Shown here piece by piece: positions 15,001 to 18,000 of a stretch of DNA of 64,000 nt. Each line of letters starts with the position of its first letter. The stretch's first letter is position 1. The stretch lies in assembly GCF_056712565.1 (NCBI RefSeq), contig NZ_CM160072.1, one strand, 5' to 3'. Made by a program: the position numbers.

Positions 15001-18000
15001 TAGTAATGACTGGCAACAAAGAAAGCACAACCCCATGTCACCAGCGATAACACTTCACGAACAAAGCCGCGGATCAGGCTAACCAGAGAGGAAAAAGCAA
15101 TCACCGCGATTATGGCGTAATCAATCCAGACCATATGTGTCCCACGATTTTACGCCCTGTCATCCTGTTCGGGGCGCATTCTAACAGAAAAAGAAAACGT
15201 TTGCGTAGGGATTTCCTTCCCGCGCATCAATAAAAATGGCGCTGAAAAAATATTCAACGCCATCGACTTTTTATGCCTTTGCGGCATCGGGCAATGCGTG
15301 TCGGATGCCGCATGAACGCCTTATCCGACCTACAGTTCTGCTCCAGCACAGGCCTGATAAGACGCGCTGGCGTCACATCAGGCAACGGCTGTCGGATGCG
15401 GCGTGAACGCCTTATCCGACCTACGGTTCTACCCCTGCACAGGCCTGATAAGACGCGCTGGCGTCACATCAGGCAACGGCTGTCGGATGCAGCGTGAACG
15501 CCTTATCCGACCTACGGTTCTACTCCTGCGTAGGCCTGATAAGACGCGCTAGCGTCGCATCAGGCAACGGCTGTCGGATGCAGCGTGAACGCCTTATCCG
15601 ACCTACTGTTCTACCCCTGCACAGGCCTGATAAGATGCGCCAGCGTCGCATCAGGCAAGACCGTATTAATTCGGTGTATAGCCCATTACCACGCCACTTA
15701 AGCCAGAAAGCTGCTTGAGCTCACCCAGCGATCCTTTCAGCTTATCTTTCGAGGCATCTGGCCCAACCAGAATACGGGTAATTTTACCCTGCACTGGCGT
15801 GGATGGCGACGTATAAACCCGATAACCGGCACCGCGCAGCTTACCGACAATCTCATTCACTTTATCGGCATTTTTCAGCGCGCCCAGTTGCACAACATAG
15901 GCTTTACCCGTTGGCGCTGCTTTTTCTTCCACGACCGGCTTCGGTTCTGGCTTCGGCGCAGGTGGTGCTTCAACCTTCGGCTTAGGCGGCTCCACCGGTT
16001 TCGGCTTCGGTGGGACGACCGGTGCAGGTTCCGGTTCAAACTCGGTGTTATTGGCTGCAATAGTGGCCGGATCGAGCGACGGTGCTGCGGCATCACCTGC
16101 CCGTACCTCTTCCGCTGCGCCTTCCGGCGGCTGCGTCGGCAACGCCTGGGTGGCGGCTGGCATCATATCAGGCTCATCGCGATCGCCCGCTTTTGGCACC
16201 AGCGGGATAGCCGCGAACTCATCCTGATAATGTTTTTTCTGCCCGTCCAGCAGCCCTGGAAGTACAATCACCCCCAGCGCTACCAGCACGATCGTGCCCA
16301 CTAACCGATTCTGAAACTTACTTGCCACCGCTTCTCCTCGCGTCAATCACTTCCATGACATGTGCGACCGTGTGGAACGAACCACACACCAGCACGGTGT
16401 CTTCCGCTTTAGCGTCCGCCATTGCGGCATCCCATGCCTGCGCAACGCTATCAAATGATTTGCCGTTACCCAAATGCTCAAGCAGTTGTTCTGCCGTGGC
16501 ACCGCGCGGCCCTTCCAGTGGCGCACAATACCAGTCATCAACCACGCTTTTCAACCAGGCCAGAGTTCCGGCAATATCTTTATCATGTAGCATACCGATA
16601 ACCGCCAGCACGCGCCCGTTTTTCGGTAGCGCTTTCATACGCCCGGTGAGATATTCCGCCGCATGTGGATTATGCGCGACATCAAAAATAACGCGTGGCG
16701 ACTCGCTCACAATCTGGAAACGTCCCGGCAAAATTGCGCTGGCAATCCCGTCGCGAATGGCATTTTCACTGACCTCCAGCCCGCTGGCACGCAGTGCCGC
16801 CAGCGCCGTTGCGGCATTCGGTTGCGGGACAAGCGGCAACGGCAGATTTTCCAGCGTGCCGTGAGCATCGCTAAACGTCCAGTCATGATCGGTGACGGAA
16901 TAGTTCCACTCAACGCCCCGACGTTGTAGCAGTGCACCTTTTTCCTGCGCCACATCAGCAATGGTAGAAGGCATCTCCGGCTCACCGACAATTGCCGGTT
17001 TTTCGCTGCGAAAGATACCTGCTTTCTCGCGACCAATACTTTCACGATCTGGCCCCAGCCAGTCGGTATGATCCAGCGCAATACTGGTTACTACCGCGAC
17101 ATCGGCATCGACAATATTGGTTGCGTCCAGACGACCGCCCAGCCCTACTTCCAGAATCACTACGTCAAGTTGTGCCTGCTTGAACAGCCACAACGCCGAG
17201 AGCGTACCGTACTCGAAATAGGTCAGGGAAATATCACCGCGTGCCGATTCAATCTCCGCAAAAGAAGCGGTGTGGGCCGATTCCGGCAATTCCTGACCCT
17301 GCACACGTACGCGCTCGGTATAACGCACCAGATGCGGCGAACTGTAGACGCCCACTTTGTACCCTGCCGCCATCAGAATCGACTCCAGCGTACGGCAGGT
17401 GGTGCCTTTGCCATTAGTACCCGCAACGGTAAACACAAATGGCGCTGGTTTCAGAACGCCAAGACGCGCCGCGACCTGGCTCACGCGCTCAAGGCCGAGA
17501 TCGATAGTTTTACTGTGCAGGTTTTCCAGATAAGAAAGCCACGAAGCCAGAGGCGACGCGGCTTGAGGAGTGCGTTTGATAATCATGGTATCCGCTGATT
17601 CGTTACGGTGAGAATAGCAAAAGGGCAGAGCCAGTGGCCCTGCCCTTATCAGTTATCAGGCCTCAGGTTCCTGATCCGGTACCGGTGGCACCACTACGCC
17701 TTCACGCGGCGCTTCAGGATTCGGCGCTGGCAGATTCATCAACTTCGCCAGAATGCTCGCCAGTTTCAGGCGCATTTCCGGACGACGGACGATCATGTCG
17801 ATCGCGCCCTTCTCGATCAGGAATTCACTGCGCTGGAATCCTGGCGGCAGTTTTTCGCGAACGGTCTGTTCGATAACTCGCGGACCGGCAAAGCCAATTA
17901 ACGCTTTCGGTTCAGCGATGTTGAGATCGCCCAGCATGGCGAAACTTGCAGAAACACCGCCCATGGTCGGGTCGGTCAGCACGGAGATGTACGGCAAGCC

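Follow-up and report, generated by a model that had tools for sequence, protein, structure and literature searches.

Bacterial interspersed mosaic elements (BIMEs) are built from repetitive extragenic palindromic (REP) sequences, and descriptions of tandem arrays of the BIME-2 class, of their gyrase binding and of their variable copy number go back to the 1990s. The Z1 form of REP is reportedly shorter than Z2, an observation credited to Gilson and Bachellier, and BIME-1, RIB and RIP elements are said to bind IHF, as Boccard and Prentki described in 1993. Here, we describe a BIME-2 array of four 91-bp units between dedD and cvpA in a 64,000-nucleotide stretch of an Escherichia coli chromosome (NCBI RefSeq assembly GCF_056712565.1, contig NZ_CM160072.1), referred to below as the window. 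BIME-2 elements consist of y and z2 REPs with an S linker and s, l or r flanks, and occur in tandem with a copy number that varies between strains, whereas BIME-1 elements are single copies of Z1 and Y whose long L linker contains an IHF site (Ton-Hoang 2012, PMC3333891). The GTAG tetranucleotide is used to define the orientation of a REP (Ton-Hoang 2012, PMC3333891).

Two described loci resemble the array in the window. In E. coli K-12, the cvpA-dedD element is listed as BIMEs2, with a length of 83 bp, and gyrase cleavage was recorded there at two sites in the RifCfx condition, at one in Micro and at none in Cfx or Oxo (PMC6379681, Table DS3). As a class, BIME-2 elements show an enrichment of gyrase cleavage sites, mostly in the Y REPs and independent of transcription (Sutormin 2019, PMC6379681), and most of these elements are found at the borders of supercoiling domains (PMC10592627). 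The other locus is REP325, a six-unit Y/Z2 array that acts as both a partial Rho-dependent terminator and an mRNA stabiliser; it limits read-through about 8-10-fold, stabilises the upstream message in a context-dependent manner and gives rise to a ladder of hairpin-ended RNAs, and its deletion shifts the expression of neighbouring genes 3- to 10-fold (Harris et al. 2026, bioRxiv 10.64898/2026.03.23.713779). One Y-l-Z2 unit of REP325 also forms the consensus of the Rfam family naRNA4 (Qian 2015, PMC4550694).

Tandem Repeats Finder reported a repeat with a period of 91 at 15285-15658 (4.1 copies, 92% matches, no indels, score 601), which was the sole long-period tandem repeat of the window. A separate repeat search returned start-to-start spacings of 91/91/91, and the four units share pairwise identities of 85.7-93.4%. 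An earlier description made from the DNA alone (the sequence-only reading) had noted a tandem BIME/REP array between cvpA and dedD, consisting of four near-identical 91-bp units; the repeat searches, the dissection of the units and the RefSeq flanking genes all bear this out. Its interval of 15273-15665 takes in everything between the terminator side and the dedD stop codon, while the repeats proper occupy 15299-15657. It was also correct that every unit holds a pair of inverted REPs, as Y and Z2 lie in opposite orientation in each of the four.

The identity of the palindromes was established separately for the two REP types. The Y-type sequence GTCGGATGCnGCnTGAACGCCTTATCCGACCTAC is present four times in the array, each time with 0-2 mismatches, and a 34-nt Y motif has five matches in the window, four of them in the array, against 0.00 expected (100 shuffles). 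The four Z2 palindromes are 37 nt long, read TGCCTGATGyGACGCyrGCGCrTCTTATCAGGCCTryn on the - strand, and align to the Z2 half of the Rfam naRNA4 consensus (GCCuGaugCGaCGCUUGCGCGuCUuauCaGGCC); the Y palindromes align to the Y half of the same REP325-derived consensus. Because each Y-s-Z2 junction aligns end to end with this consensus, the alignments are an independent check on the assignment of Y and Z2. The two types alternate: Y lies in + and Z2 in - orientation, with a short S linker between them and s at the flank. The array is extragenic, lying between the stop codon of dedD and the start codon of cvpA, and it is in tandem, with 4.1 copies here and a number that varies among E. coli strains. 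All of these are features of BIME-2, and the repeat is thereby shown to be a four-unit BIME-2 of alternating Y and Z2 REPs with S (14 nt) and s (5 nt) linkers. At three of the four Z2 copies, the tetranucleotide GTAG is replaced by ACAG. The coordinates of the units and of the surrounding features are given in Table 1. Elsewhere in the window, a further REP site with a single Y and Z2-like pair is found at 28433-28512, and a lone REP-like palindrome at 24987-25018.

Table 1. The dedD-cvpA array, the parts of its repeat unit and the neighbouring features (window coordinates).
Feature	Position	Length	Strand	Details
cvpA	14646..15134		-	Downstream gene, first of cvpA-purF-ubiX; start at 15134
TAGAAT hexamer, likely the -10 (candidate)	15183..15178		-	Follows the PurR-type box; read from the sequence
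PurR-operator-like box	15191..15206	16 nt	-	ACGCAAACGTTTTCTT on the - strand; likewise read from the sequence
Intrinsic-terminator-like hairpin and AUUUUUAUU	15225..15264		-	Hairpin 15264..15235, 12 pairs, -18 kcal/mol; directly past the array
Partial unit remnant	15280..15298		-	TGCGGCATCGGGCAATGCG; resembles Z2 tail and s linker; the extra 0.1 copy
BIME-2 array	15299..15657	four tandem 91-bp units	-	+ reading Y-S-inverted Z2-s; transcribed - strand Z2-S-Y-s, four times
Unit 1, cvpA-proximal	15299..15389		-	Y 15299-15333, with degenerate inner stem (GCCGCATGAACGCC); Z2 15348-15384, with ACAG for GTAG
Unit 2	15390..15480		-	Y 15390-15424, canonical (0 mismatches to the Y motif); Z2 15439-15475, with ACAG for GTAG
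Unit 3	15481..15571		-	Y 15481-15515; Z2 15530-15566; sole unit with the canonical GTAG/CTAC tetranucleotide at Z2
Unit 4, dedD-proximal	15572..15657		-	Y 15572-15606; Z2 15621-15657, hairpin base 9 nt past the dedD stop; without s linker
Y(unit 2)-s-Z2(unit 1) junction	15351..15421		-	Rfam naRNA4 (RF02564), 78.0 bits
Y(unit 3)-s-Z2(unit 2) junction	15442..15512		-	Rfam naRNA4 (RF02564), 74.3 bits
Y(unit 4)-s-Z2(unit 3) junction	15533..15603		-	Rfam naRNA4 (RF02564), 78.1 bits
dedD (cell division protein DedD)	15666..16328		-	Upstream gene; TAA stop 15668..15666
Y REP		35 nt	+ strand reading of unit	TGTCGGATGCGGCGTGAACGCCTTATCCGACCTAC
S linker		14 nt	+ strand reading of unit	GGTTCTACCCCTGC and variants
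Inverted Z2 REP		37 nt	+ strand reading	GTAG/ACAG-GCCTGATAAGACGCGCyrGCGTCrCATCAGGCA
s linker		5 nt	+ strand reading of unit	ACGGC

To place the array among other strains, we counted units from record spans and from fetched allele sequences; the 'covered' percentage of megablast is unusable for this purpose, since a single unit of the subject may be aligned to more than one unit of the query. The comparison across E. coli genomes, which the sequence-only reading had proposed as a check, gave 0, 1, approximately 2, 3, 4, 5 or 7 units at the dedD-cvpA site. In an evenly spaced sample of 59 chromosomes, one unit is by far the most common state (39 chromosomes, ~66%), followed by three (8), four (7, ~12%) and five units (2), with one chromosome each carrying seven, approximately two and no units. 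An earlier sample of 29 chromosomes had a similar distribution. The intergenic region grows with the number of units, from 167 bp without any unit (strain 47258) and 235 bp with a decayed one (strain 980-2) to 258 bp with one unit (K-12 and APEC O2-211), 334 bp with one full and one truncated unit (strain 100248), 440 bp with three (AR_451), 531 bp with four (the window, as in ATCC 11775, and O157:H7 strain 7386WT), 622 bp with five (CB6837 and SW070912) and 804 bp with seven (ECONIH2). Record spans add BL21 and IAI1 with one unit, EDL933 with three and Nissle 1917 with four. This copy-number pattern matches the published behaviour of BIME-2 elements (PMC3333891).

The alleles also indicate how units come and go. 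The 0-unit allele has the junction ...GCATCGGGCAAGACCGTA, in which ...GCATCGGGCAA is joined to GACCGTA within the imperfect direct repeat CATC(G/A)GGCAA. This repeat closes every unit as well as the remnant on the cvpA side, where CATCGGGCAA is the imperfect counterpart of the CATCAGGCAA that ends each unit. As the 0-unit junction falls within this shared direct repeat, units are gained or lost in register. They would do so in steps of 91 bp, sometimes 182 bp, and the likely route is slippage or unequal recombination between the units and the cvpA-side remnant, possibly assisted by the REP-associated transposase TnpA(REP). The composition of the arrays differs between lineages: every unit of the O157 arrays has GTAG and CCAGCG, internal units in the arrays of the window, AR_451 and ECONIH2 have ACAG or GTAG with CTGGCG, and the five-unit arrays of CB6837 and SW070912 show an alternating two-unit pattern, a duplication of a two-unit block. 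Since variants are common to the units within an array and differ between lineages, we infer several independent expansions; the lineages appear, from their unit sequences, to have enlarged the array separately.

All eight REPs of the array fold as hairpins on either strand, with energies of -12.6 to -21.9 kcal/mol. The weakest Y is that of unit 1, at -12.6/-14.4 kcal/mol against -17 to -19 kcal/mol for the other Y copies. Folding of the transcribed strand, also proposed by the sequence-only reading, gave -214 kcal/mol (z = -7.5) for the 444-nt 3' untranslated region (UTR) on the - strand, with the opposite strand about as strong. Among 24 distinct units gathered from ten alleles, 98.4% of the stem cells are paired and the outer stems are invariant; variation is found in the loops, the tips of the inner stems, the S linker and the GTAG/CTAC tetranucleotide by Z2. 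Stem changes on a single side tend towards G-U pairs on the - strand, where the Rfam score is higher too, which is a weak asymmetry.

The stretch 14600-16400, which holds the array, matches E. coli ATCC 11775 (NZ_CP033092.2) at 100% identity, and 5,425 of 5,426 complete E. coli genomes contain it. In the RefSeq annotation of the identical ATCC 11775 stretch, accD, folC, dedD, cvpA, purF and ubiX all lie on the - strand, and along the transcribed strand the array consequently follows dedD and precedes cvpA. It is thus shown to sit in the 3' UTR of the folC-dedD transcript, ahead of a conserved intrinsic terminator and then of the cvpA-purF promoter. The terminator-like hairpin is likely the end of the folC-dedD transcript. 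We take the 16-nt box at 15206..15191 to be the PurR site of the cvpA-purF promoter, on the basis of established knowledge of the purF operator. The cvpA promoter was missed by a promoter scan, and its position is hence inferred from the PurR-type box and the TAGAAT hexamer only. On the dedD side, 9 nt separate the TAA codon from the first paired base of Z2 (15656), a spacing common to every allele with at least one unit. A REP no more than 15 nt past a stop codon reportedly stalls ribosomes as they terminate and reduces translation of the gene before it, according to the summary of Liang, Rudd & Deutscher (2015) in PMC12306157, and the 9-nt distance falls within this range.

We scanned for the site in other species with a DNA pattern that included the PurR-type box; the loci listed, at least 120, do not extend to Salmonella, Shigella or E. 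fergusonii. The 16-mer box is present upstream of cvpA in at least 60 dedD-cvpA loci, from Vibrio to Escherichia. Among the matches listed, the terminator core GGCGTTGAAnATTTTTTCAGCGCC lies 103-106 nt from the cvpA ATG in at least 22 species of Enterobacteriaceae, and in the same species the hairpin begins anywhere from 44 to 505 nt past the end of dedD. A fixed terminator next to a variable interval indicates that the stretch from stop codon to terminator is a permissive landing site, and that the terminator rather than the repeat is conserved. What occupies this slot differs between genera. E. albertii has two BIME-2 units and Citrobacter a Y-like REP, either alone or paired with a Z-like one, and Enterobacter, Pluralibacter and Pseudocitrobacter carry a different palindromic family (CCCTCTCCC...GGGAGAGGG), with one or two copies of related palindromes in the first two. 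The 632-nt intergenic region of Pseudocitrobacter faecalis holds a tandem array of a species-specific palindromic repeat, of CCCTCTCCC...GGGAGAGGG type together with GACCGATCGAGCA...GGTCGGTG units. In the Vibrio loci listed, the intergenic region is 73-75 nt long, with neither a repeat nor a conserved terminator hairpin between dedD and cvpA.

Several effects can be proposed for an array in this position. At the RNA level, the eight hairpins would stop 3'-to-5' exonucleases and attenuate part of the read-through, protecting the end of the dedD message and helping to insulate cvpA-purF from folC-dedD transcription; the array could in this way add an exonuclease barrier and some attenuation before the intrinsic terminator is reached. 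That the upstream mRNA is stabilised, as the sequence-only reading had put forward, is plausible by analogy, given the position of the array and the strength of its hairpins. The first hairpin, being so near the dedD stop, may also stall terminating ribosomes and reduce DedD translation. In DNA, the Y palindromes would serve as gyrase binding and cleavage sites, as was shown experimentally for the one-unit K-12 allele; with cleavage at Y shown there, the local gyrase sink, or supercoil barrier, between the two co-directional operons would be stronger with four units. Because strains with 0 to 7 units coexist, any such effects would be modulatory and not essential. Taken as a whole, the explanation that this is a BIME-2 element, present as one allele of a variable-number series, with turnover as outlined above and a modulatory function, is in our view very probable.

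A number of observations nevertheless weigh against this explanation, chiefly against its functional part. The functional steps are all assigned to the four-unit allele by analogy, and even in K-12 gyrase cleavage was seen in just two of four drug conditions (PMC6379681, Table DS3). The conserved intrinsic terminator alone could define and protect the 3' end, making the REP hairpins redundant, and the 0-unit and decayed alleles show that the element is dispensable. Terminal REPs have no general link to longer half-lives and depend strongly on context (Harris et al. 2026, bioRxiv 10.64898/2026.03.23.713779). Compensatory double changes are absent from the 24 distinct units, which do no better than shuffles, in a covariation test that has no power at their mean identity of 96%. 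As both strands fold equally well, roles at the level of RNA and of DNA are not separable from the sequence.

The strongest alternative on function is that the array is a neutral, selfish passenger in a permissive slot, with a copy number that drifts by slippage or recombination and no effect specific to this locus. This would readily account for the coexistence of 0- to 7-unit alleles, including a decayed and a truncated unit, and for the slot of other genera being filled by unrelated palindromic families or left almost empty (44-61 nt among the loci listed), and the missing general effect of terminal REPs on half-life fits it as well. Yet gyrase cleavage was measured at the K-12 allele, and variation among the 24 distinct units is confined mainly to loops, inner-stem tips and linkers, leaving the outer stems untouched. 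A REP or another palindromic repeat is moreover found at this site across Escherichia, Citrobacter and Enterobacter, and the expression shifts that follow the deletion of REP325 argue that such arrays can influence their neighbours. We rate neutrality as possible, if rather unlikely; it is a serious rival, agreeing with the BIME-2 explanation on identity and differing from it on function alone. At the opposite end, the number of units might act as a heritable, selected rheostat for the amount of DedD and for the insulation of the cvpA-purF promoter from folC-dedD transcription and supercoiling, which we think improbable. If it were true, the 3-7 units of AR_451, ATCC 11775 and ECONIH2 and the 3-4 of O157:H7, as opposed to the single unit of K-12, BL21 and IAI1, would be the product of selection rather than drift.

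Other readings concern what the element is. The transcribed strand holds three naRNA4 matches above the gathering score of RF02564 (74-78 against 59.5 bits), with the + strand below threshold at 47-53 bits, and together with the original nucleoid RNA model (Qian 2015, PMC4550694) these could suggest that the dedD 3' UTR is processed into nucleoid-associated non-coding RNAs which bind HU and condense the chromosome. The Rfam model, however, is a single Y-l-Z2 unit of BIME-2, and any Y/Z2 array will match it; the 11-nt l linker of that layout is not found at these junctions, where a 5-nt s linker takes its place and appears as a 6-nt deletion in the Rfam alignment. Deleting or over-expressing REP325 leaves nucleoid volume unchanged, and neither long-range contacts between REPs nor a stable HU-DNA-naRNA4 complex was found (Harris 2026, bioRxiv 10.64898/2026.03.23.713779). 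The role of REP325 in nucleoid compaction was thus not reproduced in that work, which has Adhya as a co-author in common with the 2015 paper. Neither dedD nor cvpA is mentioned by Harris 2026. The three matches reflect a family resemblance to REP325, that is, a Y/Z2 BIME-2 unit, and are no evidence for an HU-binding nucleoid RNA; we consider such an RNA very unlikely here. The sequence-only reading had also remarked that such arrays can bind IHF and gyrase. Gyrase stands, both for the BIME-2 class and through the cleavage sites of the K-12 allele; IHF binding is a BIME-1 trait and does not apply, because the array is a BIME-2 without Z1 REP, long L linker or IHF consensus. An identity as a BIME-1 or RIB-type element whose main role is to recruit IHF could draw on the general statement that some BIMEs bind IHF (PMC3333891), and BIME-1, RIB and RIP elements are, like the array, made of REPs and placed at the 3' ends of transcription units. 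Their defining traits are all missing from the array: the linkers are 14 and 5 nt long, no match to the IHF consensus (WATCAANNNNTTR or WATCARNNNNTTR, strict or relaxed) occurs in 15100-15720, the copies are in tandem where BIME-1 is single-copy with Z1 and Y (PMC3333891), and the locus is listed as BIMEs2 (PMC6379681). The consensus scan and linker lengths rule this identity out, and its probability is close to nil. Equally remote is a CRISPR-like or short repeated coding sequence. Like CRISPR arrays, this one is a transcribed series of short palindromic repeats at regular spacing, and open reading frames (ORFs) of 43-74 aa can be drawn mechanically at 15273-15497, 15403-15552 and 15494-15718. 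But the S and s linkers are themselves repeated and leave no unique spacers, two different palindromes of opposite orientation alternate, and the annotated neighbours (accD-folC-dedD and cvpA-purF) include no cas genes, so that a CRISPR array is ruled out and the resemblance is superficial, as the sequence-only reading had judged. Coding is contradicted by the period: 91 is not a multiple of 3, each unit shifts the frame, and the products of strains with 0 to 7 units would be unrelated to one another.

The type of element, its locus and its copy-number variability were already known, and the array is in this sense ordinary; with the exact locus catalogued in K-12, it has little weight as a discovery. 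Its value may lie elsewhere. The natural series of alleles with 0 to 7 units at one site is suited to testing how REP number relates to 3'-UTR stability, read-through, termination-coupled translation and gyrase recruitment. For annotation, the array is an example of a repeat to be masked as REP/BIME rather than as CRISPR, as a small RNA gene (on the strength of naRNA4 matches) or as small ORFs. It also illustrates how the interval between stop codon and terminator can be a permissive slot that each enterobacterial genus fills with palindromic repeats of its own.

The window contains a second variable repeat. At 51807-51883, on the - strand, ATGTT(AAGACTC)x11 is a perfect 7-bp tandem repeat of 11 copies starting 5 nt past the ATG of a prophage acyltransferase gene. 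The gene belongs to a prophage at tRNA-Arg/intS and adjoins the tailspike gene, which is an endosialidase gene in some strains. At 11 copies, the long ORF that follows is not in frame, whereas the RefSeq record of ATCC 11775 has 30 copies and is in frame; the window is therefore not identical to that record at this repeat. Across 175 E. coli genomes, the length of the region differs by multiples of 7, corresponding to about 5 to 53 copies. This is presumably neuO (K1 capsule O-acetyltransferase) of prophage CUS-3, a known contingency locus whose phase variation Deszo and colleagues reportedly described in 2005. The same prophage has an Rfam match to sar RNA at 57327-57393 on the + strand (RF00262, the P22-type antisense RNA of the ant region; 83.9 bits), and its position beside annotated Arc-family and Ant antirepressor genes points to a P22-like immI region. 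An IS21-family element, ISEc12 (istA/istB), lies between the ant and tailspike genes at approximately 55200-57500 (record 1557596-1559898). The first subunit gene of the yfc-type chaperone-usher fimbrial operon, at approximately 39950-40530 (record 1574552-1575115), is annotated as a pseudogene lacking its C-terminus.

Compared with known systems, the array agrees with the BIME-2 family of Gilson, Bachellier and Hofnung, as presented in Ton-Hoang 2012, in its alternation of Y and Z2, S linker, s flank and tandem copies, as well as in its intergenic position at the 3' end of a transcription unit and its strain-variable copy number, with no difference of substance. The K-12 cvpA-dedD BIME-2 is the orthologous locus, with identical flanks and the Y-S-Z2 unit, the 9-nt spacing to dedD, the terminator and the PurR box in common; it differs in having one unit in 258 bp instead of four in 531 bp. 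Relative to K-12, three of the four Z2 copies in the window have ACAG for GTAG, and the Z2 loops of units 1-3 read CTGGCG or CTAGCG for CCAGCG, which unit 4 keeps. REP325 (naRNA1-6, between yjdM and yjdN) is likewise a tandem Y/Z2 array that lies between two co-directional genes and is transcribed from the first of them, but has six units and an 11-nt l linker, against four and a 5-nt s linker in the window. Unlike REP325, the dedD-cvpA array precedes a separate, conserved intrinsic terminator, and the genes downstream have their own PurR-regulated promoter. For a combined role as terminator and stabiliser, REP325 is nonetheless the best experimental analogue of the array described here.

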